Shown: piece by piece, positions 33,825 to 60,308 of the stretch
Numbering within the stretch: the stretch's first letter is position 1
Layout of the letters: every line of letters starts with the position of its first letter
Assembly: GCA_001662655.1 (NCBI GenBank)
Contig: KV460210.1
DNA from: Pseudogymnoascus verrucosus
Taxonomy: Eukaryota
DNA: 64,000 bases
Direction: 5' to 3' (one strand)
Notes under the pieces: model-generated
The model's input: the letters and a program-made list of their open reading frames with translations, nothing else
What the model was told of the DNA's origin: nothing
Databases searched by the model: none
Made by a program: the position numbers and the translations under genes

Positions 33825-34578
33825 TTAAGTCTTGTTCCCGAAATGCTCCTTCGCGTATTGCTCGCATGCCTGAGAGGGGATGTTAGACTCTGGTTTCTGT
33901 TCCCCTGCTGGTGATGGGGGTATTGAGGGGCGGGAAGAGTCGAGTGACATCCACAGGGACAAACAACATACCTTTGCGGGCTTCCCGACCTTCTGTCCGA
34001 TGACCTTCCACTTGTTGGTCTCGTATTCCTTGATTGCATTCAAGAGCGCGGCGCTCTGCTATTAAGTCAGCGCCAGGGTTACGTGTGGGTGGGGGGATGT
34101 GGGCATCTACCTCATCTTCGGCAAACTCCGCATAATGCATGTCCTGGAAATCGACGTCAGTTCTGGGGGTTCTCTAAAAACACACACTCTCGGGAGCGTG
34201 CAGGGGCAAACGCGGGGATGACAAACCTTGTACCAATGCTTCTTGACACTACCCTCTGTCCTGCTGGGGAAGGTCTTTGCAATCTCAGCCCAGCTGTTGC
34301 CCGCCTCGCGCATGTTCTTGAGACGCTGCTCCTCGGCGGCGGTCCAGGGGGTGTTGGTGCGGCTCTTCTTGGCCGGGGGCTGCATGGGCGGCGGGGCAGC
34401 GTTAATGGGCTGCTGCTCCTCCATCACGGCGGTTGGCGGGGGTTGGAGGGGCATGTTGGGGCTCTGCTGCGGCGGGATGAGCGGGGCCTGGAGGCGGCGC
34501 TTGCGGGCAGCCGAGGCGGACAGGTGCTCAGGCGGGGGGAGGAGCTGCTGCTGTTGCTGGGCCGCCTGTTGTTGTTGT

Positions 34579-34610
<32 letters not shown>

Positions 34611-35028
34611 CTGATGCTGCTGCTGCTGCTGATATGGGTTGCCCATGCCCTGGGGCTGCGGGTAGCCCATCTGACCCGTCGGGTCGAAGTCCATACGCTT
34701 CGACATCGAATGGCTGTAGGCGTCCGGTATGGTGTACTGGGGGAGTATCGGGTAGGTGTGTTGCGGCACACCGGACGTGCGGTGAGGACGCGTCGGTGTC
34801 TGGCGCGCGAGGTTTGGTTGAGTCTATACAAACACATCGTGTAAGTACATTGAATACCAAATACTCAAGATGCCATATACCATCTACCATATGGCGAGGT
34901 ACAAAGGTACCAGGCCATAAGGTGAGGTCAATGGGGGGATGAGGGTGAGGAGGAAAGGTACTTACGACTTCGTGTTGTCGATGTTTGGAGGATGCGTTAT
35001 TCGGCAGAGCCAAGCCGATGTTGCTCAT
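33825..35028 (-). CDS. Myb-domain transcription factor with polyQ tract, multi-exon (start uncertain)
   Basis: PWTAAEEQRL..W.EIAKTFPSRTEGSVKKHWYK|DMHYAEFAEDE|SAALLNAIKEYETNKWKVIGQKVGKPAK|ACEQYAKEHF. Confidence 0.88.
34544..34632 (-). repeat. CAG/CAA trinucleotide repeat encoding polyQ
   Basis: TGC/TGT runs on the + strand. Confidence 0.9.
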
Positions 35029-39394: not shown

Positions 39395-39457
39395 ACATAC
39401 AACAGTGGGTATTCGCTGGTGGTCACCTACCCAACTACTAATCTACCGATCTCAAGC
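39395..39457 (-). rRNA. 5S rRNA: 5S rRNA, 3' half (nt ~57-119) of split copy 1
   Basis: Minus strand GCTTGAGATCGGTAGATTAGTAGTTGGGTAGGTGACCACCAGCGAATACCCACTGTTGTATGT followed by a T-run Pol III terminator. Confidence 0.92.
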
Positions 39458-40617
39458 AATCCTCTGGCTAATAGTTAAATCGGTGCCATCCGGCCTAGTG
39501 GGTGAGCCTCGCCGCCCTTACCCCTTGTTTTGTGATCGCAACCATCTCAACCACCCCTAAGTCTGTGGACTTGCACAGCTTCATTACATATCCCATATAT
39601 AATGGCTACCTTCCTGTAATGGGCACAGTACCGCAGTAGGTGTTACAGTAGGCGAAAGAGCAATGTGCAGTAAAAGACAGCACCGTGATATATAGAGTAC
39701 CGTATCGCTAGCAGCACAGAAACCATGTACTGTAATAAAGTTTGGTTACTGTAGAAGTTAAAAGACACCACACAGTAATATTTACAGTACTACATTCAAA
39801 GATGTAAGCGGCGATTACTATGAATTCGCGTGATTTCAGCCACTCACAGATCTACGGCTCCTGCGCTTAAAATTCGATCCGATATAACTAAAGCAACACG
39901 GATAAACAGCGACGCAGCCAAAATCGTGTGAGAATCCCCGGCTACCGTAATCTTTCCCTTAGCACACGGAACAGGAAGCTTTACAGTAACCGCAGTATAT
40001 AGGACTAATTAAATTACTACACTATTCTACAGGGCTTCGTACAGTATATGTAGAGCTTAAGGGGGGCCACAGAACCCTGAGTAATCGCCAGCTAAGCTGC
40101 TTAGAGCTCAGCTGTGATTGTGGCTACATCTTGGGCAGCACCACAGCCGCACCGAGCCATCCTGGGAGGTGGACGCTGTGGCTGGGGAAAACCTTCGGTT
40201 ACAGGGTTAATAACCCACCGAATCCCAGTCCGCATGTCCGCCTTCCTCCAACAGCAACCTAGATCCTTCAGAGGGAATGCGCCTTTAAATCTCAAAAATT
40301 CACGTAATTGTCATGAATGTAGTGACCAGTGTGCTGTTGCCGCTAAAGTAGCCACTTATATTGGAACGCGACAGTACAAACAACAGTAGCCCGTCCTGGA
40401 GACTTGCATGAGCTCAGCCTCGTTCTGTTGGCATCGCGCAGTCCACATTCATTTAATCCGCCATGTCAGCTTTTTCGTCACCTAGGCTTCGGAGTGCTTT
40501 ATTTTCTGACAGCTTGCTTCATCCTCTAACGTAAGGTCATCCCGCACAACCATTTTCCACTTCCATTTCGGATGCTGATGATTTTGACAGATTGTATCGT
40601 TCCACAACTATTGTAAC

Positions 40618-43600
40618 ATGGAGGCCATAGGACTAGCGGTCGGAATCGCAGGATTGGCGGGCCTGTTCAGTACCTGCCTTGATCTTATTGACAAGGCTAA
40701 CTCTTACAGAGACTACGGTCCTGAGTCACGCTCTGTTGTCGCACAGTTTGAAGCTAACAAGCTTCTGTTTAGAAGGTGGGCTCAAAGTGTTAGGATAGAA
40801 GAAGGCAATCCCAAGAACAATCATCATAGTGCTCTAGACAATCCCGCGACTGCTTTAGTGGTATTGAAAATTTTGTCGAGCATACAGGAAACCTTCAACA
40901 AGACCGAGAATGCCCTGTTAAACATGCAGCATGTGTCGACAGCCGATCCGAGCTCTAAGAGCTTTGACTATACGCAAGGCTCGAATCAGAATGTGGAGTC
41001 CAAGGTATCGACGTCGAAGCGCCATAAGATCGGATGGGCCTTGATGGGAAAGGCGAAATTCATCCAGCAAGTCCTTTAGTTTGGGGCTCTAGTCCAGAGA
41101 CTGAATAGCTTAACGTCTGTAGATCACTTAAAAGGTATTTCTTCTCCTCTTAGCCATTGGGTTTAAGTCACTCACTGATTGTAGAAAGTGATGTTGCCAA
41201 CCCTCGAGATTTTTCCAAATCGTAAAGCCTTCTGACTGAAGCACTAAAGTTGATCGAAGGTCAGATTGCGGTAGAGATCAAAATCGAAATCGAAACCTAG
41301 CTCGGTGCTACCTGGACCAATGGACTTTATGACAACTTTACTCGAAGTAGGCTAGACGGAACTTGTGACTAGATCTTAAGTAGCCCTTCATTTTTGGAAT
41401 GGGTCTCCTCCGAATTCCCGTCAGACTCTTCAAAGGTGCTGTGGGTCAACGGGCCAGCAGGATATGGGAAGACGACTATCTGTGCCAGGGTCGTCGAACA
41501 TCTGTCAACGATACTAAAATCTCCCCTCGCATATTATTTCTTTTCAGCCGACTTTGAAAGCCGAGGCGACCCCTTTGTCGTTATTCGATCCTGGATAGCA
41601 CAATTAGTAGCGTGTAATCGAACTGCCTTTGAAATCGCCCATGAAGAGTGGCAAGCAAAAGATGGCCATGTTGCATCTCGGACTGCCATCATGAACCTCT
41701 TTAAGCTCATCGTTAGCAGTCTACCAAACTGCACATTTGTCCTTGATGGGCTCGATGAATGCGCTTGGTTAGAGGCGAACCCAATGGCTACGGATGGAGA
41801 TGGCCGCACTAGTTTCCTTACATCTCTGATCGATACCATTGCAAAAACCACCACCCGAATTATGGTTGTTAGCCGTGATGAAGCTGATATTCGCTCGGGG
41901 ATATATAGCATACACCCCAGTCAGGGCGTGTACGAGCACAAGATTTCTCCCGTAGATGTTCAATCTGACGTTTCACTGTTCTCGAAGAGCATTGTCAACA
42001 AGAAGCTAAAGAACAAAGATGAAATGGTTAGAAATAATTTATCACAGAGAATAGTCGACCGCAGCAATGGGATGTTCTTATGGGTGAAAATGCAGGAGGG
42101 TAACTTGCGCGGGGGTAAAAGCATATTGCAACTGCAAGAAACAATTGATGAAACCCCGACAGGCCTAAGCCATCTTTACGATCGAAATTGGAAGAAAATT
42201 ATAGGCCTTCAACAGAGTGATAGAACTCGGGCGCTCTTAATTTTACGTTGGGCAGCGTTTGCGATGCGGCCTCTCACTGTCCTGGAAATCACAGAAGCCC
42301 TCCTTGTTATGGATGATGACGGCTATGACAACATCCTGGTAAACGGTCTCCTAGATGAGATTGATGAAGAGTACGTTAATAGTGAGATCAAGGGTCTCTG
42401 TGAGTCGCTTGTAGAGACTCGAGGAGCATCCACTAAGGGGAGTTTCGCATCAATGACCGTTCACCTAGCACACTTCTCAGTCAAGCAATATCTCCTACAC
42501 AACATGCCAACGTCTAGCCTACTAGGAAACAATATATCTTTACAGAGTAGCGAGGCCATTCAGTGCAATGAGCTAGCTAAAACTTGCCTGCGCTACATCA
42601 ATTTCCGAGATATTTGGCAGCAGCGCGTTTGTTCTAAGGACAGCGTTGATAGCCGGCCCTTCCGAGACTACGCAGCTACTTCATGGCATCGGCATCTTTT
42701 TCCTGCAGGAAAAAACTACACCGATGTACTTTCCCTGGTAAATCGACTGTTTCATCCTGAAAATATCAATTGGCAATCATGGGCAGCATGGTTTGATTCT
42801 GTTGAACCATTAGTGCCTACTAAGGATTTAAATGAAACAAGGTCGATGAGCCCACTGTACTATGTGTCACTTCTTGGCATCTATGATGCTGTTGTGTACC
42901 TAACAAAGGAGTTGAAACTTGACCTGAATTACGTTGGTGTAGGGCATAGAACACCATTATATGCAGCCTCATGGAAAGGCAACATCGATGTGGTTAAGGT
43001 GCTACTGGAGCTTGGAGCCGATGTTATAGTTGCGGATAGTAACGGAGCAACACCGTTAAAGCGTGCGTCACAACACGGGCACGTCAAGGTAGTCAAGGTG
43101 CTACTTGAGCACGGGGCCAATGTCACTGTTGCTGAAGAAGGAGAAACACCGTTATATATTGCGTCATACAATGGGCACGTTGACGTAGTTAAGGTGCTAC
43201 TTGACTATAGAGCCGATGTCACAATTGCTCTTAGAGGATGGACACCGCTAAGTGCAGCTTCTAGCGGTGGACACGTTGATGTGGTTAGGGTGCTTCTTGA
43301 ACGTGGAGCTAACACAACAATTACAAACAGCGATGGAATGACACCACTATATTTAGCATCAATTTATGGATATGTTGATGTGGTCAAGGTGCTACTTGAG
43401 CATGGAGCTGATGTTACAGTTGCAAACATTACTGGATGGACACTGCTAAATGGAGCATCAAGCAGAGGACACGTTGATGTGGTTAGGGTGCTTCTTGAAC
43501 ATGGAGCTAACACAACAATTACAAACAGCAATGGAATGACACCACTATATTCAGCATCAATTTATGGATATGTTGATGTGGTTAAGGTGCTACTTAAGCA

Positions 43601-45152
43601 TGGAGCTGATGTTACAGTTGCAGACATTAACGGATGGACACTACTATATTTAGCATTAAGCAGAGGACACATCAATGTGGTTAGGGTGCTTCTTGAACAT
43701 GGAGCTAACATAACAATTACAAACAGCAATGGAATGACACCACTATATTTAGCATCACTTAATGGATATGTTGATATAGTTAAGGTGCTACTTGAGCATG
43801 GAGCTGATGTTACAGTTGTAAACATTAACGGATGGACACCGCTAAATGCAGCTTCTAACAATGGACACGTTGATGTGGTTAGGGCGCTTCTTGAGTATGG
43901 AGCTGATGTAACAGTTGCAAACAGCGATGGACTGACACCGCTAAATGCAGCATTAATTTATGGATATGTTGATGTGGTCAAGGTGCTACTTAAGCATGGA
44001 GCTGATGTAACAGTTGCAAACAGCGATGGACTGACACCGCTACATGCAGCATTAGTTAATGGATATGTTGATGTGGTCAAGGTGCTGCTTGAGCATAGAG
44101 CTGATGTTACAGTTGTAATGGATAATGGATGGACACTGATAAATTAGGAATATGGAAATATTTTGGGATATGCCGTACATAATGCTAAGGCATCATTGGT
44201 ACAGCTTCTGCTTGAAGTGGATACAGACACAAACCTTAGCAGCGACGATTATGGACAAGCCTTACAACTTGGATGCATTAATGGTAATGTACCTATTGTC
44301 GACGCACTAATATGTGCCGGAGCAGATCCCAATAGGGTAGATGAGCATGGATGGACTTCACTATGGTGTGCTTCACAATTTGAGCAAGATGTTATTATGG
44401 AGCGGCTTGTTGCATGTGGAGGAGATCCATCTTTGGCCACACGAAATTCGACACTCGCACTAACGTCGTGGAGTTTAGTAGATAAGTCTCCTCGCCTAGT
44501 TTTAAACGAGGATGCTATTACCATTAAATATGCTAGTAAGTATTCCCTACGCCCTGAGAAATTCGCGTTACTGATCAAAGTAATCGCGAAGGCATAGAGG
44601 GGAACGGAAAGGCGAATGCGGCAGCAGCTCGAGCGAACCACCCAATTTCTCTCTAGAATGCTCCTTTTTACTTTGAGATTACAGTCCTGGATAGTGGTGA
44701 TACAGGGTAATCCGTCTCTCAAATCTTTGCTGCGTGTGCTAACATCTTTTTCTCCTAGAGAGATTGGGTTAGGTCTCTGTAGTGGGTATGCACCCATTAA
44801 CGCTATGCCTGGGTGGAACCTTTCATCGTGGGGATATCATGGAGATGACGGCTACATCTATAACTCATTAGATACAGGGAAACCTTACGCTGATGTATTT
44901 GGGACTGGGGACGTCATTGGGTGTTGCCTCACCTGTGATAATGAAATTACTTTTACTAAAAATGGGATTTCCCTTGGTAAGTTAGTTAATATCTTTTGTT
45001 GGCTATAGACAAGCTAATACTACAATCTAGGAAGTGCAATGAAGGCCACAGAAGGCAAACTATACCCTGTTATTGGCATGAAAAGTTGTGGTGCTTGCAT
45101 TCGAGTAAATTTTGGCAATGAGCCTTTCCAATGTGATTTCGCGCTAATCTAA
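40618..45152 (+). pseudogene. NLR-like HeLo-NACHT-ankyrin-SPRY gene with RIP-type nonsense mutations
   Basis: HeLo-type N-terminus (GLAVGIAGLAGLFSTCLD); Walker A GPAGYGKT; Walker B VLDGLDE; more than 10 ankyrin repeats; SPRY motifs MPGW..SWGYHGDDG, GDVIGC, LYPVIG; in-frame stops at 41077, 41223, 41298, 41370 and 44145. Confidence 0.9.
43150..44140 (+). repeat. Array of highly similar 99-bp ankyrin-coding repeats
   Basis: GGATATGTTGATGTGGT(C/T)AAGGTGCTACTT and GGACACGTTGATGTGGTTAGGGTGCTTCTTGA unit types alternate. Confidence 0.9.
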
Positions 45153-45391
45153 GGGGCGACCATTTTACTAGAGTGGAAAGCTTGCAAGAATTGGAAAGGA
45201 TGTCTGTTAACAGGGTGCGAGCTGGGGTGCCTGTTGACGAGTTCCCTAGATCTATTGTTGGGGCGAAATCGCTTTCTAGGGCTTACGTTTAGATGGAGAT
45301 ATGCTAGATTTCAATGCAAGTCCACAGGTCCCATGCCCCGATTCCGCGCTATGCCTATTGGCACGATTGAGACTATTAGCCAGAGGATACG

Positions 45392-45452
45392 CAAGCTTGT
45401 GTATGGCAGAGCGGACGGGATGCCCAATTCCCTTAAGTCTATGGTCGTATGT
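45392..45452 (-). rRNA. 5S rRNA: 5S rRNA, 5' half (nt 1-61) of split copy 1
   Basis: Minus strand ACATACGACCATAGACTTAAGGGAATTGGGCATCCCGTCCGCTCTGCCATACACAAGCTTG; TATA-like element ~25-30 nt upstream. Confidence 0.92.
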
Positions 45453-45754
45453 GGGAGTTGTGCAGTTGTTAGTGGTGATATATACTATCCCCCCTCCCCC
45501 ACCCGATATAGAGAAAAAAGGCGTAAATAGTTCCCCTACCTAGATCTGCCTGTCTATGTACATATATATAATAGTAGGTATTCGTAGGAGGAATATAAAG
45601 ATTTAGATGGGTAGATTACGATTTCTAGAGATTCGTTGTGTGATTCCGTAAGCGTGAACTAAAATGTAGAATTATATAGTACGATGGCATTTACTTACAT
45701 AGTAGCTCTAGAGGCTATTCCGCATGTTACAACTAAACAACTAGTGCATCGAAC

Positions 45755-47371
45755 TTAGCAGGGTCTTCCTAGGATAACTCTAAATAAACCCCTAAGTAAT
45801 AGGACCAGCGCCGCCGCCACCACTGCCGCCGACTCCGACGCAGACCGCACGGCTGTCGCTTACGCCAAGACCAGAATACACCCCTGTGTCACAGTTAGTC
45901 CCGATCCAGGGGTTCCAGGATGTTAGTTGAGCAGGCGTGATATCGAAGTCCTCAGCGATGTCAGAGCAGAGCTGTAGTCCGACAGACCGGCCATCGACGG
46001 CCGTAAAGCAGGTACATGTTGATATTATTCCCGGATGCGGGTGGTCGGCGTAGTATTCAAGGAAATCGTCTTCTATGATTAGGGCTGAGTTTTTAATAAC
46101 TCATGTTAGCTTTGCGAGGTGGTTTAGTGTGTCTAAATCGTGCTCACGGACGGCATGGGGTCCGACTTACGGGGCAGAAACGAAGTGCCGTTTAAACCGC
46201 AGTACCTGTATCCCTCCTGTAGCATGCACGGATCTACAGATGCTAGGCTCGGGTTCCATGAGAGGAAGTCGGCAAGCGGAACCTCAAAGACCGTCGTGGT
46301 GTAGTCGCAGGTATTAGCATTATTGATGATGGCGACTGTATCCGGGTGTACACTCTAGTCGGTGATTGCGGGGATGGAGAAGTGGTCGATGTAGCCGTCG
46401 CAGTCGGATGGGGTTCCAGGGGCGATTGGGAGTTCGACTATGGGCGTTATGATCGGTTCTGTAGTTGAGAGAGGTTGCGTCGTAGTAGTGATAGTGCCGT
46501 CGCCTAGGTCGTCTCTAGGAGGACTGACGCAGATTAGAGTCTCGGCGAGGGGATCAAGATTCGTGCAGAGCTGGTTGATATTAGGGTTCCAGTTCAGGAG
46601 ACTAATGTCGTTCATGTAGCTGTGCTGTGCCAGGATACTCTCGCAAGTCTCATTATACTTCACATGGTATAGATCACAAGGACTTGCAAATTCAGGGTCG
46701 TAGCCAAACGGCTAGTTTAGCTGGGTTTGCACGACCCCAAGTATGCAATCAGAGAAAGTTTGAGCTAATGACAATGGGCCGGATCCCAACCAAGAGACAA
46801 AGATCTCATCGCAAAACTGGCCTATAGAGCTGCCGTTATATAATCAGCGTTAATGACTGATCGGAAGCGGTTTCGACAGAGGGGGGGGAATCAACAAGAC
46901 CTACGTGTCTTTTCTACACGAAAGATCGTATGTGTATAAGAAACGATCAACTACATAAGTAGCTGTATACCAAATATAATTAGCTATAGATACTTATTAG
47001 GCAGAAACAGACCGAAGATGATCGAGCTATAGATGTCTAGACGGACCAGGCTAAATGACGCCGTCAAACTCAACAACATCAGTGTCTAAATTGCAGCCCA
47101 AGGCAATGGTTTGACGGACGTTTGTTAAAGCTGTACAGCAAGCTGGAGTGCATAATGCCGTGAACTGCTCTAAGTCGAGGCGCGGATTAGTAGCGGAGAC
47201 GCCTATCAGAAAGCTAGGGCAGTTGGGGGCAGTCGTGTTGAGAGCTTCCATGCAGTTTTCGCTAACTCCTAGATAGTCTAACTCCATCGCCGTATCTTTA
47301 AACTGTTAAGCGTTAGCGCTACTGGCTAGATGTGCTAGTAGTAAAAGTGATAATGAACAGGTGAGTGTCAT
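45755..47371 (-). pseudogene. Secreted LysM-domain protein pseudogene
   Basis: Signal peptide followed by TAA; C..ALNTT..C N-terminal domain; YHVKYNETCESIL...LLNWNPNINQLCTNL...ICVSPP LysM; PIAPGTPSDC; stops and frame breaks. Confidence 0.8.
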
Positions 47372-48173
47372 GGTGCCGAACGAACGAATTCTTTATCAAA
47401 ACTGCCATTCTGACCGTCTAGGACAATATTACATCTAATTCCAATATCTTTAGCTCAAAATGGTCTAGTTAGCGGGATTCTCCTCGCGATTTAAATTGAA
47501 GCTTGGCGAAGTGTTAATATCCATGGGTTGTCCTGCTGCCGAGCCTTAGTCTAAGCTGAGATAGCTGCCAAAAGAAAAATGAGGATTCTATTTCCTATTT
47601 CCTGTTTCAAGTGTTCAATATTTAGGATCCATAAACCCGTAGGACAATTAGCAGTTAATACCGAGGTTAGTGCGCTCTATATATGTACGGATTTAGTAAT
47701 GTAAGGTATGCCGTATCTTCCGCATTGCCTTGGTTTTTTACAGCTACCAGATTGTTCCATGGTCAGAATTTACCACATATCATCTCCAATCTAAGGATTG
47801 GATTTTCTAATTCCTAATATGAATTTCCTCTTTAACGGACCGCTGGCGCATGCTTAGCTACCATTTCTAGGTCTCCGAGTTGTTATCATCCTTAGTCCGA
47901 GCCTTCAGGTTCTGCTTCACCTTCCTTGAGGACGGCATACAATTCATCTGATCTTGTTAAATATAGTGCAGTTAGGGCCTTTAACGATTCCAAACCACCA
48001 TCAGTTTCATCTCTCTCTTCTTTGTCTGTTGTTCCCCTACCCGGATCTGCCTGCCTACGTACATACATCCTTCCTGATCCTCCGGACCCTTCCGCGCCTA
48101 TTCGGAACGTCAACCTTTAGAGCTGGCCGGGCCGAGTTTATGTATTAGAACGGCAATACAAAAGAGGCAAAAA

Positions 48174-48230
48174 ACATACAACAGGGGGTATGTATTCGCT
48201 AGTGGTCATCTACCTAACTACTACTACTAA
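48174..48230 (-). rRNA. 5S rRNA: Degraded 5S rRNA 3' fragment (split copy 2)
   Basis: + strand ACATACAACAG..TATTCGCTAGTGGTCATCTACCTAACTACTACTACTAA aligns to 39395-39441 with small duplications and transitions; preceded by the same GGCAAAAAA terminator flank. Confidence 0.8.
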
Positions 48231-48408
48231 AAAATGAGCTTGCTCCTGTTAATTAAGTCCCGTGGTTTATATTCGTTTGTGATAAATGTACTATGGGACA
48301 ATAGTAAATGTTATGAAACAAAACAGCACTTGGGACATAGAACTTCTTGATGGTGATAAAAGAGTGTATTGGGTATATTATCTTTCTAGCTTTACAGACC
48401 AGCTCTAT

Positions 48409-50215
48409 CTATATAAGAAGCCAGTCATAGCCCAAATGGCCGACACTAAATATCCACTGCGGCGAGGATAGCTCCCCATAATCCTCCCGTGTCCAGTATT
48501 CCTGCAAGATCTTAGAGGCATTGACCGCATTCAAGCAACTTGTTTCCGCCCAAAATTGCGCCAAGCAACTGGTTAGAAAATCCCTTTGGGCTTGCGACTG
48601 ACACTCTAGGCCGGCAATGAAGATAGGCCAGAGGATACACTTGAACAAGATTTGGTCGTCCTTTAGTGCCTCGATAACACCTAGTAATGCACAAACCAAA
48701 TCATCCTGCGACGTGACATTACCCGTGAGAGCATCAAGTACACGCCTGCCATATATGAGAGAGCCAAGCTGGAACGATTGTGACAACTTGCAAAGCTTAT
48801 CTATACCCTGCATCGAAGGCGACGGTAGTTGCGGGAGCAGGCCCGATGCCCACATGTAGGAATCGAAATCCCGTACAGACTCAAGCATGGTAGTGATGTG
48901 TCGGGTGTGGGAGAGGATGGCGGTGTCGTCTGATGGCGCCTGGTCTGCGATGATGTCTCGCTGGAGCGAGAAAAATTGTATGGCGTGGAGGAGATGATCC
49001 GGACATCCGAGAAAGGATTGCTGGACCGATTCCTGGGGCGGCGTGCCAGACTGGTCTAAAGAGATCGGCTGGGATAGTAGCCTAGGGCGTGCAAAGGTTG
49101 CTCCGAGTGTTTCAATCCTAGTATTGTATTAGCAATTCATCTACAATCTATGCGAATTGATAGTTCTGTGCGGATATACATACAGATAGATCTGTCTGGT
49201 GATGAAACTACGTATCGCCTGGACAGTTCGCCCGGGATCCAGCTCGTTGGCAGTTTCCAACCCAGATGATGGCCAAATGGACGCAATTAAGTTCTTAGCA
49301 CCTTCGAGATGAAAATTCCATCTATCACAGCCGGACTCCAAGAGGTCTAGAAACACCAGGAGGAATATACTAGCCGCTATGGTGTCTTGCCTACGTGATA
49401 CTGCATCGTTTAACGCAAGTGATAGCGCTTGAATGGCTTGACATTTGTATAAAAGCGCATCCTTGTCGGAGGTGCTTGAGGCAGGAGGTGTCGCTAGCAG
49501 AGGCTGCTGGCGGAAGAGATAATGTCTATTGGCGTTATGCCGTGCTGCAAGGGCTAGAATTGCCTTGAGTAGAGTTGAGTCACCCAGAGCAAGAGATATT
49601 AGGTTCCGAAAAGGATTCTGGTCACTGTCGTACACAATGAATAACTTGCATATGCATCTATTGTCTGCATATTGATGTTAAATCCCTTCTGGGAAATTTG
49701 CTAGTGGGATTGAAAACTTCTATACTTACAGTAATCTAGGTAATATCCGGAGGCTCTGTCCAAGCTTGAAACAGAAGGATCTTTTAGAGATAATGGTAAG
49801 CTTGATAGGGGGCCGCTGATATTATTGGTATCTGATTTTATTAGTAATTAAGTCCATTTAAATATGATACCGAGGAAGGATTTTTCTCGAGTAACATCAA
49901 GATCAGCTATAGTATTACAGATTTCTCACCATTGTACTTAAAACCATTCGTCACCGGCAGCTTTGGGCGTGTAGCAGAGGACTTGATTAAATCACACCTC
50001 GTGCCTGTTGATGTCCCATTGAAGTTTGCTGCTGCAATCGAGGCGTCCTGGACTGATAGTCCTCGCATCTTGCCTCGAACGGACATGCCTTTTACCCATC
50101 TGATGGGCCTCTTCTCGGAACATTCCAACCCCGCCTTTTCACATTTCGCACAGGGCATTCGGGATCTGTCGCATTCAATGTGCCGACGGCGGCACGTGTA
50201 GCAGGGAGTATACAT
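48409..50215 (-). CDS. Zn2Cys6 transcription factor with Fungal_trans_2 domain (Acr-2-like), multi-exon
   Basis: CYTCRRRHIECDRSRMPCAKCEKAGLEC; QNPFR, HLEGA, LWPIFIAGLEC motifs. Confidence 0.88.
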
Positions 50216-50624
50216 TGCGATTTATACCAGAGAAATCAACAATGGAAGGGTAGCCATGTACAGCAGCTGCAACGCAGGCACTATGACGTATTCACGCGGA
50301 ATCCTAAGAGCTGGGTTGCTATTGTAGCAGAAAATAATACAAGAAATGTAAAATGGGAAATCAAGAGGACAGACAGGTATCAAAGAGTGGTCTGCCGTTC
50401 GCCTTCGTTGTCAGATGGGATTTTCAGTGGCGAGAATAACTGATGGTACCAAGTCCCGATTACTAAGCAATTCTTGTACATTTATCGGGACCCGCCAAAC
50501 TTTAATAGTTGAGTCACATAGTTCACAACCTATGCAAGATCGTGGCAATTTCAGATTGTGGAGGACTTGCTATCTTAAAAGTTTATATGACAATCGCCGT
50601 GGGCCCTGGGACAACGGCATCAAG

Positions 50625-51404
50625 TCATCCCCGTTTATGAGAGTCTTTCAGCTGGCCACGTTCCCCAACCGTCTTTGCGATTCCCTCACCAACCTCCGTC
50701 CCCAAATTCTCAAAGCCGTTGATGACTCCCTCCCGATCTCCCTTGCTAAGCTCCTGACTCATTTTAAATTTCCCCCCCAAACGATCAATCCTGATCTCGA
50801 TTCCGATGATATTCTTCTTCATAATCTCAATATAGGGAGACGGCGCGTCGGACACCTCCCATGGCGACGACTTATCTCCTCCAGTATAGCCCATGATCAG
50901 CGACTCGGATTGCTGAGTCAGGTCTCCGAGTTGCTTCCGTAAGAAGGAACTCGTCTCGTCCGACTGGGAATTGCAGTAGACCCTGACCTTGCCGTACACC
51001 TCTACCGCAGAATAGTTCCAGGTAGGAACCACCTTCCCGGAGTCTGGTTTGGTTTCAACGTAGAATTTAGGCGTGACATAGTGGTGGTGTGGTCCATTGA
51101 AGAGAACCAAGACTTCATCCAAGAGCTCAAGTGTATCGTGACCCTGCTCCTTTCTAGCTGCTACCGCCTCCATCAACACCTTCGCTTGCGGATTTTGCTT
51201 TGCAATATGACCCCGCAGTATTCCATTTGACAATGTTCCGTCCGCGGTCTCGGGAACATCTAATACAAAAGGAATATGACTCGCTAGGATCAAGGGATGC
51301 TGTGGTGATCTGATTGCCGTCGTCAGAATGCCCAGGGGATTCTCCCGGATCAGTTGTTGTAGAGCGGGAATATGTGCCTCCGCGTGGATCCCTCGGAGAT
51401 ACAT
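50625..51404 (-). CDS. PaiB / FMN-binding split-barrel family protein (PAI 2-type)
   Basis: MYL..H, SHIPF, GHIAKQNPQ, YVTPKFY, VPTWNY, GKFKMSQ motifs; intronless. Confidence 0.9.
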   Translation of the reverse strand: MYLRGIHAEAHIPALQQLIRENPLGILTTAIRSPQHPLILASHIPFVLDVPETADGTLSNGILRGHIAKQNPQAKVLMEAVAARKEQGHDTLELLDEVLVLFNGPHHHYVTPKFYVETKPDSGKVVPTWNYSAVEVYGKVRVYCNSQSDETSSFLRKQLGDLTQQSESLIMGYTGGDKSSPWEVSDAPSPYIEIMKKNIIGIEIRIDRLGGKFKMSQELSKGDREGVINGFENLGTEVGEGIAKTVGERGQLKDSHKRG

Positions 51405-51829
51405 TGTGAGTGTTAAAGAAATAGATAAAATTTGCGAACACTGTCCGCAGTCTAAATGTGATGCTCTGCTTCCCGAGAAGTATATTTATTCATCAAGTAT
51501 ATCACGGGACTTGCAACTTCAACTGGGTATACCTCGGGAAATACGTTAGTGTGGTTACTTTTTTAGGAAGTTAATGGGAGTGGAGCTGTCAAAGCGATGA
51601 CGCCAACTCCTACAAGGATAAAGTCTGTTTTGGGCAGTTAACTGGAGTGGGGCGAAACTATGGAGATCACCACTAACGAAATCGACACCAAGGTAATCGA
51701 AAGACTAAGTAAATAGGCTATCTGAATATAAATATCAGTATTGATGCGTAAAGAGAGCAGTAAGATTCATTTCTCCCTCTATTTTCTAATTTTTTTCTCT
51801 TGAAGCACTTTCTATTCTATGACCTCAAA

Positions 51830-53087
51830 ATGCCAGTACAAGAGCATAACCACCCCGCTACCCGAGCATTGCATGCGGATGATCCGTTAAATCTAGTAAC
51901 TGATGTCGCACCGCCAATGCATTTGTCAACGACATTCAGGTATCCCAGCGAGCTCGAGAAGCTTATCCCGTCAGAAGATCCAGTCGTGGGTTCCCATCCT
52001 TACCTGGGCTTCTTGCCCTATGGTTTAAACAAGAAACTGATAATGTGCCATCTAGGCAGAATTTGATGGGAAAAATTATGTCTACTCCCGGGAATTTGCA
52101 CCGAATGCAACGCGATTTGAAGCCATTCTATCCTCTCTTCTCCAGGGCCACGCCGTGTGCTATGCCACTGGATTGGCCGCCCTTCACGCTGCACTATTAC
52201 TCCTGAATCCTCGTCGCGTATCAGTAGGCGAAGGATACCATGGAAGTCATGAAGTAATATCAGTTATTTCCCGTCTCTCGGGGTTGCAGAAATTGGGTCT
52301 TGACTGCCCGGCAAGCGACTTAGAAAAGGGAGATGTAATCCTACTTGAAACCCCAATCAACCCACTAGGGACTGCTTTCAGTATTGAGGAATATGCTAAG
52401 AAGGCTCATGAGAGAGGTGCCTATCTTGTTGTAGACAGTACGTTCGGTCCACCTGGCTTGCAAGACCCATTCTTGTGGGGGGCTGATATAGTCATGCATT
52501 CGGGGTCGAAGTATCTTGGGGGCCACAGCGATATGTTATGTGGCGTCCTCGCAACGCAGCGTCAGGACTGGACAAAGCAGCTCTTCGAGGATCGCTTTGC
52601 CCTTGGGCATGTTATGGGAAATTTGGAGAGTTGGCTGGGTGTTCGGAGCTTGCGGACGTTGTCAATCCGTGTGCAACATGCCAGCCGGAGCTCTGCAAAG
52701 CTGATTGCGTGGCTCCACGGTTCTCTCAATGAACCGAATCCGATTCCTAACAGTGAAGCGCATGTTGTACAGGCGGTTCTTCAGAAGATTTTTCATGCGA
52801 GTCTCCAAGATGAGCCTTGGGTACGGAGGCAGATGCCGAACGGCTTTGGCCCGGTCTTTGCTCTCGTTCTGCGCAACGAGGAATTCGCTCGCGGATTGCC
52901 AAGAAAATTAGCCTTCTTCCATCATGCAACAAGTTTAGGTGGAGTGGAATCTCTCATTGAGTGGCGCGCAATGTCTGATGCCAGGGTGGATCGAAAGTTG
53001 CTGAGAGTTAGTATTGGATTGGAGGATTGGGAAGATTTGAAGAACGATCTACTGCAGGCATTCCGGTCGCTAGTGGAAGAGCAGTGA
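51830..53087 (+). CDS. PLP-dependent Cys/Met-metabolism enzyme (cystathionine gamma-synthase/lyase, YHR112C-like; intron ~51986-52055)
   Basis: DVAPPMHLSTTF, YSR, LETP.NP, VDSTF, HSGSKYLGGHSD PLP lysine, ATSLGGVESL, LRVSIGLE. Confidence 0.92.
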
Positions 53088-54080
53088 TTGTTTTTTGCTT
53101 ACTATATCGAAATCCAAAAATATGCAAGATGAACTCTCATCGCAATATAGTTATCTCAATCTTCTTATGCACCACCATACATATCTATCCACGGTCGCTA
53201 CGTAGATAAATACGCCAATTCAGCTCAACTACGGATGGGCCATATGTATAAGCTGGTCACTTGTTGGTTAATATATACCATCACCACCCCCCAATGATTA
53301 TGGCTTCATTGACTATTTTTATGCCGGCAAAGCTAAGATTCTCATCACGACCAACAACCTCCTCCGTGGTCTCAGCTTTGAGTCAGTATCGCTAGTCATC
53401 TTAGACCATATTCCAACGAATGGCCGGGTCAAAACAGATCCTGACTACGATACCTACCTGTATCATATTAGTCGTTTATTTTGTCTTGGATCAGAGGGGA
53501 AAACATCGTCTAACCAGACCGATGGACCTGACATGAACGCAGTTCGAGCCACAGGAAGACTCAAGCCAGAGATGGAACTATAAAACAAATAGCCGCAAAC
53601 CCCTGCCAGCCCCCAATCCTTTTTCCCAACTAACCATCCCATGCGCCCTAGTTCCTGAAACAGGTGATCTTGCTTCAATTGCCGACAAAAGGACACTGAA
53701 AGCTTAGAGAGATAACCCATAAGAATACTTTCTACTAAACCCCCCACAAGACCCCGTAGAAAGCCGTTGAAAGGACTATAATAGAGATCAGGGAACACTA
53801 GATATGGACTATATATGGACTTTCGGGAGACATAACAGAAGAGAAGGAAGTAAAATCATCTGGTAGACTAGTGCCCTTCAGGTTTAGAGCCGGGCGAATA
53901 GACCTCATTCATTCCATCCACTTATAACTCAGATGTAACATGATTAAACATTTCCAAGCGTATTGCATAGATCTATAAGTGACTGCACTTCACTCGGCTC
54001 AATTTCGTACTAAAAGTAGGTGCAGACTTAGTCCCTGTTCTTTCGGGGAGGTTTCAGGAGGCTAGGGGAGAAATAATATC

Positions 54081-55496
54081 TTAGAAGCACTTGCTCTTAA
54101 GGCAGTCAGGAAGAGGAAATCAGTGGCATCTCAGACGTACCACAAAATTAGGCGTGGGGCTCCAATACCAAAGGCTGACCATCGCGTTGTCGGAGTAGCC
54201 ATCAATGTACGTATCCGCGCAAGCAACAGTAAGTTGATTATTCTCGACATAGTCAGTGTATGCGATCGCAACGCCGTCTATGACGCCAGAAGTGTCATAA
54301 TTCAGTTTTTCATAATCAAGCCTGCACGAGGATTAGACCAAACTCTAGATAGCAGACATTTCGTTTACTTACTCAGACTCATCTACATCGCCCCAGTAAA
54401 TATATGCGGACCAATCAATTTCCCCATCACTTCCGTCCCGCTCTTATGTTCAGAGAGTATTAGCACTTGCGTGTTTATCAGTAATTTGAGAGTTGAGAAA
54501 ACAAGGGTCAAAACACTTACCATTGAAGTCTCCCTGATCTTGCCGTTTATTCTTTGAGGACGCGTGCGAAAGTGTAACATTTCATGTAAATTTCAACCCG
54601 CGAAGATTGCTAGCGCTGTGGCGGAAATAGTGCAAGTGGTAGAAGTTACCTGGTGTTGTAATGTTGCTAATAGCAGTAAATTCTGAAATGGGAATTAGTC
54701 TTGTTTATCAAAACTATAAAGGGAAAGAGCGAGTGCACAGGCAAAGAATCAGCACGCCACATCCAGAAAATTCCTTAGTGGGAGATGGTATGTTCTTAGA
54801 GATATATGGTAGTTGTGGACTTACTATCATGGGGAGCAGTAGCTGCCAATGTGCTTCTCAAGCTGCTGTTGACAGTTGGGATGTACCTAAAGAGCAGAAA
54901 ATCAGTAAATGCCGATTTGAGGGTAAAGTGTGGGCATAAGAGCATTGGAAACTAGAAATAGTTTGACCACAAAGTGCTTAACTCATCAAGATCAGGGATT
55001 GAAAAAAGGAGAGCTAATATTCTTACTGGGGGTCTAGAGACCACACGACTTCATCAATAGCCCGTTTTGTAGCTTCCTAGGCAAAGTAGTTTGCTGCTGC
55101 AAATGTAAAGAAGAAAAGGGCCAAATTAAGAGCACAAGCCCCTCCAGCGGTAAGGACTCCACCGATATAGCATGAACCTACCAAACTCTTTGCGAAGCCT
55201 GCAGCAATACCAGCCCAAACGGCAGCAAGGACGCCATTGTTAACACGCTTTTCGTGTTCTAGGTAGGTTGAAACGCCGGTTGGACCACGTGGTGCAATGT
55301 CAAGGTCACGAGTAGTTGCTGAAGATGGTGCGTCCCATCGGGTGATATTAGTCAATCTCAATGGAGATTCGATCTGGTCGAAAGCGAGAGATCGGAACTT
55401 CAGGTTTGGTGACATGACTTGGACATCCACAGAGGCTTGGGTAAGAGCGACGAGGGCGAAGGCCCCGACTGCTAGCAAAGGCAAGTAAGTCTGCAT
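54081..55496 (-). pseudogene. Secreted preproprotein with Kex2 sites, hydrophobic Gly/Ala helices and acidic C-terminal domain; in-frame TAG at 55079-55077
   Basis: Signal MQTYLPLLAVG..; EKR|VNNGVLAAVWAGIAAG..C..C; frame continues EATKRAIDEV after the stop; downstream exons with GT-AG signals; 3' end approximate. Confidence 0.55.
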
Positions 55497-56119
55497 GTTG
55501 ACGTGAATAATGTGAACAGGAAGTTGGAATTTTGTCTCCAAGAGAGATGCTGTCCTAAAAATGGAACCATGCTGCGTTTATATCTTCGAGGCTTCAAGGT
55601 TGAGGAATTTAATTGTTGCTTCCCTTCAATCCATGTTGGTTTCGCCGATTGGGTTGCAACTTGCAAAATGCCATTGCTGCATGAGACTGCTCGTATAAGG
55701 TCGCAAGGTTCTCATCCTTCGATAACATCCTAACAACGTACTTTGTCCCATGTGCGCAGGGGACTTGACGCTCGTTCTCTTCGGACTTAGACCGCACTTG
55801 CTGACTCTTGGCCTGGCTTCGAAATGGGTTGAACAACTTTGAATCCTAGCATAGCTGGTACTCGAGATTTCTAAAAGTATTTGCGTATATTTCACCCATG
55901 CCTATATATCCGCAACTAGCTCAGGCTCATAACTCGGCGAATTGAATGTAGTGCAATCTCGTTATCTGTACTAGGGTTATTTTGCCGGTGGTCGCCCCCA
56001 AATCCAGGGGCCTTGCATTGCGCACGGACATTCCGTCCATCAAGCTTTCTGCGAAAGCTTGATGACCCGTCAAACCAGTCTCCCACTTTCTTTGTCAACG
56101 ATTTTTCACGTCTTCAGCG

Positions 56120-56680
56120 ATGTCCAGAACCATAGAGACTACAACAGCGACGCCGCCGCAGCGAGATCCATCGCAGTCTCATGTCGTGGTATCAAGATCA
56201 CCTCGGCAGTCAGCGTTCTGTGCCATTTTCACCATGCTCATCGCCGTCCTTCTCTTCAACCTCGCCGCTTACACCGTCACCGCCATATACACTTCTCTCA
56301 CGAGCACGCCCACTGTCTTAAGCTCTACCAAACTCCGAGCAAGTGATTGCGAGTGTCCTCTCCCTCAACAGCAACAAGACTGGCTCGTCCCCGCACCAGC
56401 AATCACCAAACTCTGCTTTATAGCCAACCTGATGCTAGGCATGGCGAGCGGAGCTCTGCTGGTGGTTGCGTTCCTCTGGTGGATGACAAGTGCGTCAGAG
56501 GTGTCTATCTCTGTGAGGAATTATGCACTAAGATGGGGAATTGGGGCTGGAATCGTGGGACTTGTGTTAGTGCATATTCTGTTTATGAAGAGGTTAGTGG
56601 AGGGCGGTGGATTGGTGATGGCTGTTAATACTATTCTGGGCTTGGCTTTGACTGGATTGGTATTTGGTACAATGGAGTGA
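56120..56680 (+). CDS. Hypothetical integral membrane protein (~4 TM)
   Basis: 186-aa ORF with four hydrophobic segments and coding-like codon bias. Confidence 0.6.
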   Translation: MSRTIETTTATPPQRDPSQSHVVVSRSPRQSAFCAIFTMLIAVLLFNLAAYTVTAIYTSLTSTPTVLSSTKLRASDCECPLPQQQQDWLVPAPAITKLCFIANLMLGMASGALLVVAFLWWMTSASEVSISVRNYALRWGIGAGIVGLVLVHILFMKRLVEGGGLVMAVNTILGLALTGLVFGTME

Positions 56681-58970
56681 TCTACATTTAGGAGCTTGGA
56701 CTCGATCTAGAATTCTCTAGAGAAAAGGAGGTGTTGAGATGGCTCTTCGGGTACGATAAAACTGGCTTATTTAGACAAGCATCTAAAACCCAAAGAATCT
56801 GCATTATCCTCAACAAACCCACTCATTAGTGTATTGAACCTTTGCCACTCCCCAAACATCACCTCAGTATGTAGATTAAGCGGATTGGAACAGACAGCAC
56901 ACAATGTATGTTCCTGCCCATGAGTGGGAATAACTCATGGCTGGGCCGCAACATATATTAATTCTACAATGCCCAACTGCATTGCAGATGCGTAATAAAC
57001 CCTGACCCTAAAATCCAACTGCATCATAGGTGCCTGATAGACCCTAGCCCTGAATAATATTATCCCAATACCTGTGAATTTGCCATGGCTGTCTCGGTGC
57101 TTAGTAAGATGGATCACCATTGCGGCAACACATAGCTTTTATACCCAATGATATGAAAGCTGAAAGGACGGCAGGCGTTCTGCTAAAAATGGATTTGGAA
57201 CAGCCGCAGCCGCTGGGGGGTTTGCCATCTATGGCCATATTTGACGGCAGATTCTCCAATCAGTTAACCAGCACTTTATCCAGTGGTCCAGTGTGACTAG
57301 ACCATCGAATGGACCCTCATGGTGGGGCATTATGGTGCAATATGAACAGGGCCTACCCCGCTCCTAACAATGTGGCAGCTACAAGTAATATTTTCCCGGG
57401 CTACATCCATTAGACTAAATTGGTTCTGCTGTTGGAAATCCATGTCCCGAAGCCCAACAACATCGTGAGCATATCATACCTCTGTCTGATTCTAGTTCTG
57501 AAATCCAACACCTTTTTGAGCATCTCATACCTTGATCTGATCATAACTCTGAAATGCAACCTGCATCTCTAACAATACAGGATCTAGCCGGTATTGGTTT
57601 CAAAATCCTACTGCATGGTGAGTACCAAAATAATTTCAAGGTGTAGATCCAAAATAAAGCAGATCATCTAATGATAGTTCCGAAATCGACCAGGATAACA
57701 AACCTAACTAGATGGCTACTGGGCATAAACGACAATTATATATAGGTTAGCTGCAAAGGTCATATAATAGTAGATGGCGGTTTGAGGTAGAAATACTCAA
57801 CGCTGCCTTATGCCTCAATTGCTCACGGTTTAGGTCAATAGATTCGTACAAATAAACATACAAACCATTCTTAAGTATTACAAAACGCCCCTGTTACTAC
57901 AGACTCTGCTCGATTGGCCAGTATATAGCGCCCCTTACACAGTGCATACGGAAAAGGCTGGGGGCGTGGACACCGACCGAGATTAGGGGCCCATGAGGTT
58001 GTTGGCGATGTTGGTTGCAAGGGTGCTAACTCTGCCTAAGCAGGTATTAGGTTGAACAGGTGAAACCTCTGAGAGAATAGACCCGATATGACTTTGTTGG
58101 TAAAAACTGCAGGCCTAAATGTGATTTTTAACCGTGTATGCATGCGCGACGCGGTGCTGGATAATATCTTGCAACTCTCTAGTACGGGATACGGGACAGG
58201 GGTAAGCAGCGTTTAATCATACCAGACTACGGAGGAACACCCTGCACCTTTCTCATTGTGAATGCTCTCCGACCATTTACCCCAAACCACCAAACACCCA
58301 CCATCCACCCCTGCCATTCTTTCGGCCATAAGCCCCCACACTGTTTCGAAGATTCAGGATCGATCATGACATATGCATTTCCTTAGTATCCTAGCCAGAT
58401 CTCAACTAGGCGGGCAACTGGCGTTCGACGGGAGCTAATGGTAGTAAATCTCCGTGTTGCCCTGTGATGGAAAAGGTGGTAGAGCTTTCTGAAAGATCGT
58501 GTAAAAAACTCGTGCCCAGTGGGACAAAGACCATAATGAGATTAAGATTGACGACTAGAAGAAGTTGACAAGTCCGTGAGAAGCTCGAACGTCGTCAAAA
58601 ACTCCAAGTTACGTGAGATTCATAAATGTATGTAGTCACCGCTGCTTTATATTCTGCCACTAACTTGAACTTTTGTGTTTTTGATGTGGTAATTAAATAC
58701 TTTCGGGCATAACGTGCCTCAAACTTATGGCTCACAAATGATTAAATTGACTGGAAAATAAGATCAGGACACCCTTAACATGGTATGTAAGCTACAAAAG
58801 CCAAACTTCGGTGCTGATACAAAAAAATGGCACGAAAGTGACGCCAAATTGACACGAAAATGTTGCTTCGCCTCACCCACACTCGCTCTGGTCACCCCCC
58901 GCGTCACCCTTCAGGCTGAAAAGGGCCTCGATTCTGTTAGCACGATTGAGACCATTAATCTGATGTTACA

Positions 58971-59031
58971 CAAGCTTATGTATGGCAGAGCGGACGAGAT
59001 GCCTAATTCTCTTGAGTCTATGGTCGCATGC
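58971..59031 (-). rRNA. 5S rRNA: 5S rRNA 5' half (split copy 2)
   Basis: + strand CAAGCTTATGTATGGCAGAGCGGACGAGATGCCTAATTCTCTTGAGTCTATGGTCGCATGC aligns ungapped to 45392-45452. Confidence 0.9.
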
Positions 59032-59182: not shown

Positions 59183-60308
59183 TTACCTCATAGACGCAAT
59201 AATTTCTTCCGCCTGAGCAAAGCTCAACTCTCCTAGTGTCTCTTCCCAGATCTGGTCTTGGGCTATGCTCCCTTCGGCGGTGTAGAAGAAACTTGCAAGT
59301 CTACCAATAGTTGCCAGCATTAGCGGTTTTCCCAAAGCTTGTCAGAAACCTTAGGGTTTAAATTTGTTTTGGAATAGGGATTACTCACGGTGAGATTTCC
59401 GTGTTCATGAGAAAGCACCCGTGCGATTCCTTGCCATGGCCCAACAACGCATCAACATATGTAGCAGCCCCTCTGTCAACGGGTCTGCCGGTAATGGCAA
59501 GGAATGCTTTCATGGCTACTAACAACGCACCCTTTGCATCGCGAAACAGACCTGTGCCTTTAGTAAGGCCCGGGTCGACCATGTTGATCACCACATCTTC
59601 AGGTTTGATATGCTCTGCGAGCTTGACCAGAAACAGTTGAGCCAGAAGCTTCGACACGCCATATCGGTTATTGGAATCCCATGGGGTTATAGTGGTATTA
59701 TCGAAAGAAGGCAGGAGAGGGCGCTGGTGTTGATTTGAGAAGTTGCAGAGATGTGCGGTGAGAGAGTTGACGACGGTTAACCGTGCTGGATTGTCTCGGG
59801 TCGATTTAGCCTTGAGAATGGGCAGCAGGAGAATAGTAAGTAGAATTGTGCTGGTGTGGTTGACCTGAATGGTGGTCTCGTGTCCGGTGGATTGAGTTGT
59901 GCTGAAATTTGCTGGAGCGAGTCCAGAATTCAAGATCGTGTAGTCGATGCGTGAGAGCTCGGTATTGCATTTGTGGACAAAGGTCTGGATAGAGTCATAC
60001 GACTCCATGTCCAAGGGCCAGACATCGATGGTTGCGGAAGGATTGGCCAAGGTAAGTTGTGAAGCTGCATCTTTACCTTTCTTGGTGGACCGCACGGCCA
60101 CTATGAGATGGGACAGACCGAGAGTCAGGAGCTGCTTTGACGACTCGAAGCCGAGGCCAGTGTTGGAACCAGTGATGATTGCGACTTTGCCCTTTAGGCT
60201 GGGGAATTCGCTTCGAGTCGGAAGCTCAATTTTGACCTTGAACTGATTATTCCAGAAAATCTTGCCGGAATTCTTAGGCAAAGGGTGCATGTCCTTGGAG
60301 GCAACCAT
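59183..60308 (-). CDS. Short-chain dehydrogenase/reductase (retinol-dehydrogenase-like; intron ~59388-59301)
   Basis: TGSNTGLG, LDMESY, NSG, YGVSK catalytic motif, DPGL. Confidence 0.9.

Follow-up and report, generated by a model that had tools for sequence, protein, structure and literature searches.

Two 5S rRNA genes broken at the same nucleotide in Pseudogymnoascus verrucosus: possible captain-less relatives of 5S-targeting Starship elements

Introduction

What could break two neighbouring 5S rRNA genes at exactly the same nucleotide? The question is raised by a stretch of 64,000 nucleotides from Pseudogymnoascus verrucosus (GenBank assembly GCA_001662655.1, contig KV460210.1), which we call the window. 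Two 5S genes within it, here A and B, are each divided into two separated parts. The parts of gene A enclose 5,934 bp (element 1, 39458-45391) and those of gene B enclose 10,739 bp (presumed element 2, 48232-58970). An earlier note on this DNA had described the second break and proposed that the two are independent, diverged members of one site-specific family, with conserved ends and exchangeable cargo in the manner of gene cassettes.

Mobile elements that use 5S genes as targets are known from other fungi. Starships are giant cargo transposons of filamentous ascomycetes, with a DUF3435 tyrosine recombinase (the captain), direct repeats and often inverted ends (PMC11162782). According to the same source, 23% of 222 curated Starship sites lie in 5S genes, where at least five distinct internal target sites are used in a strand-specific way (PMC11162782). 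With moderate confidence, and judging from sequence comparisons, we propose that the two elements described here may be captain-less relatives of such 5S-targeting Starship-type elements, moved in trans, of which the second would now be immobile.

Results and discussion

Both 5S genes are cut after position 61

All 5S pieces in the window lie on the minus strand, and both genes are cut after position 61 of the Rfam model, at the sequence CAAGC within an 8-bp palindrome (CAAGCTTG). The 3' part of gene A (39394-39457, minus strand) includes the left copy of CAAGC (39453-39457) and gave a truncated Rfam match to model positions 59-120 (21.1 bits), besides a weak match of 23.5 bits when the full window was searched. 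Its 5' half (45392-45452, minus strand) opens with the right copy of CAAGC, in the palindrome at 45392-45399, and matches positions 1-61 of the 120 in the model (16.8 bits).

Gene B shows the same break. Its 5' half (58971-59031, minus strand) also opens with CAAGC and matches model positions 1-61 of 120 (20.6 bits). The 28-mer beginning at 58971 occurs twice in the window, exactly at 58971 and with two mismatches at 45392, where 0.00 occurrences are expected. The second 5' half that the earlier note had placed here is thus borne out by both the count and the Rfam model. The degraded 3' fragment that it had seen to the left is also real: positions 48174-48223 (minus strand) differ from the gene A copy at 39409-39440 by 3 mismatches in 32 nt, and blastn aligns the two copies at 83% identity over 65 nt (E=6e-11). 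ACT repeats and a run of A follow the fragment, up to 48231.

At Rfam gathering scores, no RNA family was found in the window; the gathering score for 5S is 38 bits, and the fragments reach 16.8, 20.6, 21.1 and 23.5. Apart from the weak full-window match, the pieces surface in Rfam only through truncated searches of short stretches, and the 48174-48223 fragment was not recognised by Rfam at all. A tRNA scan of the window likewise returned no genes.

The differences between the two 5S copies are of one kind. All seven differences between the 5' halves (45392-45452 vs 58971-59031) are transitions, and all three in the 32-nt stretch of the 3' parts are G-to-A or C-to-T changes in the second copy. 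Such transition-only differences are compatible with either repeat-induced point mutation or an ordinary transition bias.

Element 1 has clean ends inside gene A

Element 1 is flanked by a perfect 5-bp direct repeat, CAAGC, at 39453-39457 and 45392-45396. Deleting the element and one copy of the repeat in silico gives a 5S sequence of 120 nt, the same length as the Rfam model, and in the predicted fold of this restored sequence nt 1-9 pair with nt 111-119 as helix I. Inside the repeat are inverted ends. The left one (39459-39498, plus strand) begins with a 16-nt perfect core, ATCCTCTGGCTAATAG, at 39459-39474; the right one (45349-45391, minus strand) holds this core at 45373-45388, followed by ACG. 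These two, in opposite orientation, are the only occurrences of the core in the window. Over their 40 nt, the two arms are 75% complementary, with an alignment score (43) that none of 2,000 shuffles reached. The inverted ends do not start directly at the repeat but are offset from it, by 1 nt at the left end of the element and by 3 nt at the right. That element 1 is a true insertion seems to us close to certain.

The cargo of element 1 is an NLR-type gene (40618-45005, plus strand). Pfam finds a HeLo domain at 40618-41079, NACHT/NPHP3_N and ankyrin domains at 41373-44144, further ankyrin sequence past an in-frame TAG (44145-44147) and a SPRY piece at 44598-45005. About nine ankyrin repeats of 99 nt, with up to 91% mutual identity, occupy 42945-44223. 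The TAG falls in this ankyrin region and may truncate the gene, with ankyrin and SPRY coding resuming in the same frame behind it. An intron of 45 or 62 nt is likely from 44536.

A homologous terminus adjoins gene B

Does the break in gene B have the same cause? The sequences leading up to the two right-hand CAAGC copies are homologous. As the earlier note had counted, the 34 nt preceding each copy agree at 26 positions without gaps (28/37 when extended). The binomial probability of at least 26 matches in 34 is 1.1e-9, and random pairs of 34-mers from the window match at 8.5 positions on average. By blastn, terminus and 5S half form a single match of 104 nt (84.6% identity, E=1e-26). The homology runs to the last base before CAAGC and includes a 13-nt subterminal block, GCACGATTGAGAC, that is identical in element 1 (45361-45373) and element 2 (58940-58952). 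We delimit the right terminus of element 2 as 58925-58970 (minus strand), its last 37 nt being those compared above. Just inside both termini stands GCC(C/T)CGATTC, at 45335-45344 in element 1 and at 58925-58934 in element 2 (GCCTCGATTC), as had also been noticed; an insertion of 11 nt separates motif from terminus in element 1. The end of element 2 resembles the right end of element 1 (score 33, 0/2000 shuffles as good) and not its left end (score 14, 593/2000), and the two elements therefore have the same orientation relative to 5S.

The left side of element 2 is a different matter. Smith-Waterman alignment of the three termini with 48224-48330 gave scores that were not above those of shuffled sequence (380, 652 and 1,893 of 2,000 shuffles as good). 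An nhmmer profile built from these three termini and run across the window recovered its three training sites only, the next match having E=13. Only the right copy of the direct repeat is present, and 17 nt of gene B are absent beside the left break, consisting of 12 nt plus the 5-nt repeat. The left inverted end, the left repeat and part of the 5S gene are accordingly missing here, much as described before, with 17 nt counted in place of about 16.

We consider the junction at 58971 to be very probably a second insertion, by a relative of element 1. Since the left end is gone, the extent of this insertion is unproven, and we lean only slightly towards the whole 10.7 kb being cargo. It could also be that only the right junction (58934-59031) is an element relic, that the fragment at 48174 belongs to another, independently truncated 5S copy, and that some or all of the genes between are resident host genes. 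The lack of a left inverted end or repeat at 48232 speaks for this explanation. However, the order and orientation of the fragments are exactly those seen at element 1, and no other 5S piece was found between them at E <=10. We consider resident genes improbable on balance, and return to them below with the genes themselves.

One further terminus-like sequence was noted at 46123-46150 (plus strand), which matches the reverse complement of the element 2 end at 23/27 positions and includes GTCTAAATCGTGC, one mismatch away from the conserved block. Few local shuffles matched as well (1/2000 and 2/1000), but across the window the match is not significant, its score (31) being followed closely by that of the next tile (30). 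There is no 5S sequence next to it, and the two open reading frame (ORF) pieces of a minus-strand LysM-like gene enclose it, possibly as part of an intron. We judged the match to be due to chance.

The 5S genes belong to a locally duplicated unit

The two 5S genes share more than their coding sequence. Their downstream flanks are homologous (39207-39269 vs 48021-48087, about 82% identity; score 70, 0/1000 shuffles). Within these flanks is a 38-nt motif (GTTCCCCTACC..GATCTGCCTG.CTA.GTACAT), which occurs three times on the plus strand, at 39210-39247, 45530-45567 and 48031-48068, in a single orientation and with 0/1000 shuffles as good for each pairing. Two of the copies follow the 3' ends of the two 5S genes at a distance of 105-146 nt; the remaining one is found close by on the upstream side of the first 5S gene. 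Adjoining this middle copy, at 45565-45620, is a candidate third 5S relic, heavily decayed: a 26-nt stretch resembles the antisense 5S 3' end (21/26; 8/1000 shuffles) and an adjacent 27-nt stretch resembles sense positions 48-75 (22/27; 4/1000), so that the two are in mixed orientation. Upstream of the 5S copies, no homology was found past 6 nt beyond the 5S start (258/1000 shuffles as good). The three copies of the flank motif suggest that units of 5S plus flank were duplicated locally before the insertions. Without the two elements, the locus would consist of a few such units clustered in one orientation.

This duplication bears on whether there were two insertions at all. A single ancient insertion could have been copied together with its flank and split 5S gene, after which complementary deletions would have left only the common ends. 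The homology of the downstream flanks is in keeping with this, and so is the similar divergence of all the shared parts: about 82% identity in the flank, 83% in the 5S 3' part, 76% in the termini and 88% in the 5' halves. Yet two complementary deletions would be needed, one of them sparing about 57 nt of the right end, and the abrupt end of upstream homology at 6 nt past the 5S start fits separate 5S copies better. Variable cargo between common ends is, moreover, documented among Starship haplotypes (PMC11162782, PMC12153272). We regard a single duplicated insertion as very unlikely.

Of the family proposed in the earlier note, one part holds up well. A family with variable cargo is supported by the identical target nucleotide, the homologous right termini, the shared orientation, the unrelated interiors (below) and the clean ends and repeat of element 1. 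The independence of the two insertions is less secure, given that the flank is shared and has diverged to about the same degree as the 5S halves and the termini. The several 5S-plus-flank copies, including the possible third relic, also lend something to the idea that the 48174 fragment is a separate 5S copy beside resident genes.

The two elements carry unrelated genes

Three genes in element 2 could be assigned to families. A Zn2Cys6 transcription factor gene (48412-50221, minus strand) lies in three ORF pieces, with Pfam matches to Zn_clus and Fungal_trans_2. It is followed by a PaiB-like FMN-binding protein of 259 aa (50625-51404, minus strand; Pfam FMN_bind_2, E=3e-50) and by the main exon of a pyridoxal-phosphate (PLP) enzyme of Cys/Met metabolism (52056-53087, plus strand; cystathionine gamma-synthase/beta-lyase family, Pfam E=2e-55). 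Homologues of the last two were found in other fungi. The span also holds several small ORFs without a family, two of which gave no usable lead in a protein atlas search.

None of this resembles element 1, in agreement with the earlier note. The Pfam contents of the two elements differ, and blastn found no similarity between their interiors. When 38-60 kb was compared with the window by blastn, four homologous pairs were found apart from the ankyrin repeats, namely the downstream flank, the 5S 3' part, the right junction and the 38-nt flank motif.

Relatives give indirect and conflicting hints on whether the genes of element 2 are cargo; these come from locus tags and contig sizes at the level of 90% clusters. 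The right flank of element 2 contains a short-chain dehydrogenase/reductase (SDR) gene (59385-60308, minus strand), whose product matches V499_07303 of Pseudogymnoascus sp. VKM F-103 at 100% identity; two other proteins of the window also have Pseudogymnoascus species as their best named relatives. Taken by themselves, these matches assign the window to the nuclear DNA of VKM F-103 or of a strain almost identical to it. In Pseudogymnoascus sp. 23342-1-I1, the PLP homologue is VE03_02551 (94%, contig of 498,112 nt) and the flank SDR homologue is VE03_07045 (85%, contig of 217,835 nt). With such distant locus tags and different contigs, the PLP gene and the SDR flank are apparently unlinked there, which speaks against resident host genes. 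In one JGI relative, on the other hand, PaiB and SDR homologues (both 93%) fall in clusters sharing the same longest contig (29,477 nt), which suggests that cargo and right flank are linked in that fungus too. The PaiB and PLP genes are also an old adjacent pair in other fungi, a further point in favour of residence: their homologues have adjacent locus tags in Arachnomyces (FQN54_007830/31), Aspergillus nanangensis (FE257_001553/54) and Paecilomyces lecythidis (Plec18167_000949/50).

In the window itself, the PaiB-like and PLP genes are divergent neighbours (50625-53087). The distribution of the pair is patchy, with a few Leotiomycetes at 87-94%, Lipomyces next at 77-81% and many Eurotiales at about 70-80%.

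The target lies in the stretch used by Osiris

How closely does the target site resemble those of known elements? In Aspergillus fumigatus, a hotspot with 6-8 copies of 5S has received several independent insertions, and Osiris, of the Enterprise family of Starships, fragments 5S genes there (PMC12153272). Its direct repeats are given as ttaagccac, aagcc, aagccacacg and aagccaca (Tables S3/S4, PMC12153272). We mapped these to the 5S gene studied here by ungapped alignment of the A. fumigatus empty-site string to the first 5S half, which placed them at positions 53-61, 55-59, 55-64 and 55-62. The repeat of elements 1 and 2, GCTTG in sense orientation, is at 57-61 with the break after 61. Both elements thus use the stretch of 5S that is spanned by the Osiris repeats (53-64).

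The termini themselves had no significant similarity to the Osiris inverted ends, scoring no better than 11-100% of window tiles. A match to the inverted end of Osiris h3 at 48516-48532 (minus strand; 14/17, with all three mismatches being transitions), about 290 bp from the left break of element 2, was rejected, as the transcription factor ORF covers it and matches of this quality turn up in 6 of 100 shuffles. The terminus motifs were also not found in the part of the PMC11162782 supplement that precedes Tables S11-S13.

What may have moved the elements

We searched the window for an enzyme of movement with Pfam. No DUF3435 protein, other recombinase or transposase was found in any of the 74 ORFs of at least 80 aa to the right of 37.6 kb. 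Left of 38 kb, where there are 156 such ORFs, the 133 that were scanned contained none either. We also scanned 150 short ORFs (30-79 aa) taken from non-coding sequence in the two elements and in the spacer; these gave seven weak, unrelated matches and contain no such enzyme and no degraded captain. Neither element therefore has a captain as the first gene at one end, as a Starship should.

The elements could instead be non-autonomous cut-and-paste elements of the Pack type, with inverted ends, a 5-bp target-site duplication made by staggered cuts of a DDE transposase, a chance preference for the 5S site and an autonomous partner elsewhere. Much of the anatomy is classical for such elements: inverted ends, a short flanking duplication, small size and captured host genes. 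There is a precedent in ToxhAT/ToxTA, a 14-kb non-autonomous cargo transposon (PMC12506042), and neither the elements nor the window ORFs scanned yielded a tyrosine recombinase. Both elements, however, entered the same nucleotide of a palindrome in the same orientation, a pattern usual for site-specific recombinases and for the strand-specific repeats of Starships (PMC11162782), and the site falls within the 5S stretch of the Osiris repeats. As noted above, there is a gap between each inverted end and the repeat. The window ORFs scanned contain no transposase either, and hence no autonomous DDE partner with the same ends. Fungal DDE superfamilies are not known to pair a 5-bp duplication with ends like these, which also counts against a Pack-type origin. 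This explanation fits the bare anatomy but accounts less well for the identical site, the orientation and the coincidence with the Osiris region, and we think it unlikely.

We are evenly divided on the enzyme: it may or may not be a tyrosine recombinase, rather than a DDE transposase, that moves these elements. The sequence of events would then be as follows. A small minus-strand 5S cluster would have had two of its genes hit, each by a member of one family of site-specific cargo elements. A captain encoded elsewhere in the genome would act in trans by binding to AATCG(G)TGC, the conserved subterminal block of the ends. Strands would be exchanged in CAAGC, the 5-bp core of the palindrome CAAGCTTG (5S positions 54-61), and the core would so come to lie on both sides. 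The 12 predicted recombinases of VKM F-103 (PMC11162782) are candidates for this captain. In element 2, one later deletion would have taken the left end together with 17 nt of 5S, after which the element could no longer move. In its more specific form, element 1 would be a non-autonomous 'mini-Starship' consisting of one NLR gene between ends of about 40 nt, and an Enterprise-like captain acting in trans would insert it into the CAAGCTTG core; this we put forward tentatively, as a possibility we would not bet on.

Several observations weigh against captain-less Starship relatives. No recombinase was found in the ORFs searched, and the ends show no significant similarity to those of Osiris. Starships are given as 15-700 kb long (PMC13728883), and the present elements, at 5,934 and 10,739 bp, fall short of that. 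We saw no empty site, with no fungal genome collection searched for one. The in-frame stop in the NLR gene means that element 1 need not be recent or active, the extent of element 2 is unproven on its left side, and the JGI relative suggests linkage of cargo and flank. The similar divergence of flank, termini and 5S halves leaves a small share of probability to a single old insertion followed by duplication. With the captain absent and the size below the published range, membership of the Starships cannot be claimed.

Other features of the window

Coding density in the window is low, and its ORFs carry fungal domains (Zn2Cys6, HeLo, NACHT, ankyrin, tannase, GH16 and GH84). Away from the 5S locus, GC skew is strongly positive for about 3 kb (34000-37000; up to +0.47), a region that also contains TGC/TGT triplet repeats (34546-34635) and a minus-strand ORF with a Myb domain. 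An 18-nt unit (GGGGCGAGATCTTTCGCG-like) is repeated about six times in tandem at 18283-18425. Tannase/feruloyl esterase domains extend over two separate ORFs and GH16 over two overlapping frames (23149-24616 and 28273-29548), which may reflect introns or frameshifts.

Implications

Captain-based annotation starts from the captain gene, and captain-less elements are therefore invisible to such tools. Pseudogymnoascus is a genus where these tools have annotated almost nothing: for VKM F-103, Table S8 of PMC11162782 records 12 predicted Starship recombinases but no element annotated by Starfish, and across 21 Pseudogymnoascus genomes it has one annotated element in total. If captain-less derivatives with intact ends exist and move, the mobilisation of cargo in fungi has been under-counted. 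The ends described here would then offer a compact substrate for studying what a captain requires in cis, and split 5S genes would be a simple genome-wide marker for such elements. Should element 1 prove to be a mini-Starship, it would define the minimal cis requirements of Starship transposition, and it would show that immune-receptor-like genes and small sets of metabolic genes can travel on captain-less vehicles. Even if both elements are only dead relics, they provide a clear case outside Aspergillus of a 5S cluster serving as a landing pad.

Comparison with known systems

Which known system do these elements most resemble? The gene cassettes of the earlier note are not a good model. Integron-type cassettes have an adjacent integrase, an attachment site for each cassette and an array of promoterless cassettes. 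Here, no integrase was found in the ORFs scanned and there is no attC-like site or array; the elements carry whole eukaryotic genes on both strands and occupy two separate 5S sites. Truncated 5S pseudogenes reportedly described in Aspergillus nidulans in the 1980s, as 5' halves with a common end point followed by a conserved non-5S block, are said not to have been read as traces of a mobile element at the time.

Among bacteria, integrative and mobilisable elements at tRNA genes also target a conserved multi-copy gene for a small RNA, have a core repeat on both sides and in some cases depend on a recombinase in trans (PMC9156397). They differ in that integration usually restores the tRNA gene, whereas the 5S genes here are split and unrestored. 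ToxhAT/ToxTA of wheat pathogens is similar in its modest size (about 14 kb), inverted ends and host-relevant genes, and in having no transposase of its own, so that it is thought to be moved in trans (PMC12506042). Unlike the present elements, it has a TA duplication and Tc1/mariner-like ends, and shows no specificity for rRNA genes.

Closer parallels come from the Starships. Voyager of Macrophomina phaseolina is a cargo element that always sits inside a 5S copy, with target-site repeats and inverted ends, but it inserts 20 bp from the 5S start, has a repeat of about 12 bp, is about 91 kb long and has a captain (PMC9156397). The Enterprise type element has a repeat of 5-6 bp within a palindrome of 10-12 bp (PMC11162782), a palindromic core as found here. 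Element 1 has target-matching direct repeats at both boundaries and terminal inverted repeats, the latter being frequent in Starships though not universal; element 2 retains the right direct repeat and lacks the left arm.

Osiris is a further parallel. It inserts into the 5S coding sequence and fragments the gene, has inverted ends, varies its cargo by haplotype and gathers at a 5S-rich locus; one haplotype has a 5-bp repeat (aagcc), as here (PMC12153272). In both cases, insertion occurs within the 5S stretch that the Osiris repeats span. The differences are of scale, content and host: Osiris haplotypes have mean lengths of 37-138 kb, with predicted copies of about 12 to 184 kb (PMC12153272), as against 5.9 and 10.7 kb here, and they have a DUF3435 captain at the start where the present elements have none. 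Osiris also resides in A. fumigatus, whereas our host belongs to another class, the Leotiomycetes. We found no small captain-less form of a Starship-type element with clean ends in the literature, and in the available portions of PMC12506042 and PMC13728883 the term 'non-autonomous' is not applied to Starships. Cargo elements that insert into 5S genes are thus already known, and it is this 5S-targeting Starship type, rather than integron-like cassettes, that is the known match for the present locus; what stands out here is a small, captain-less form with clean ends.

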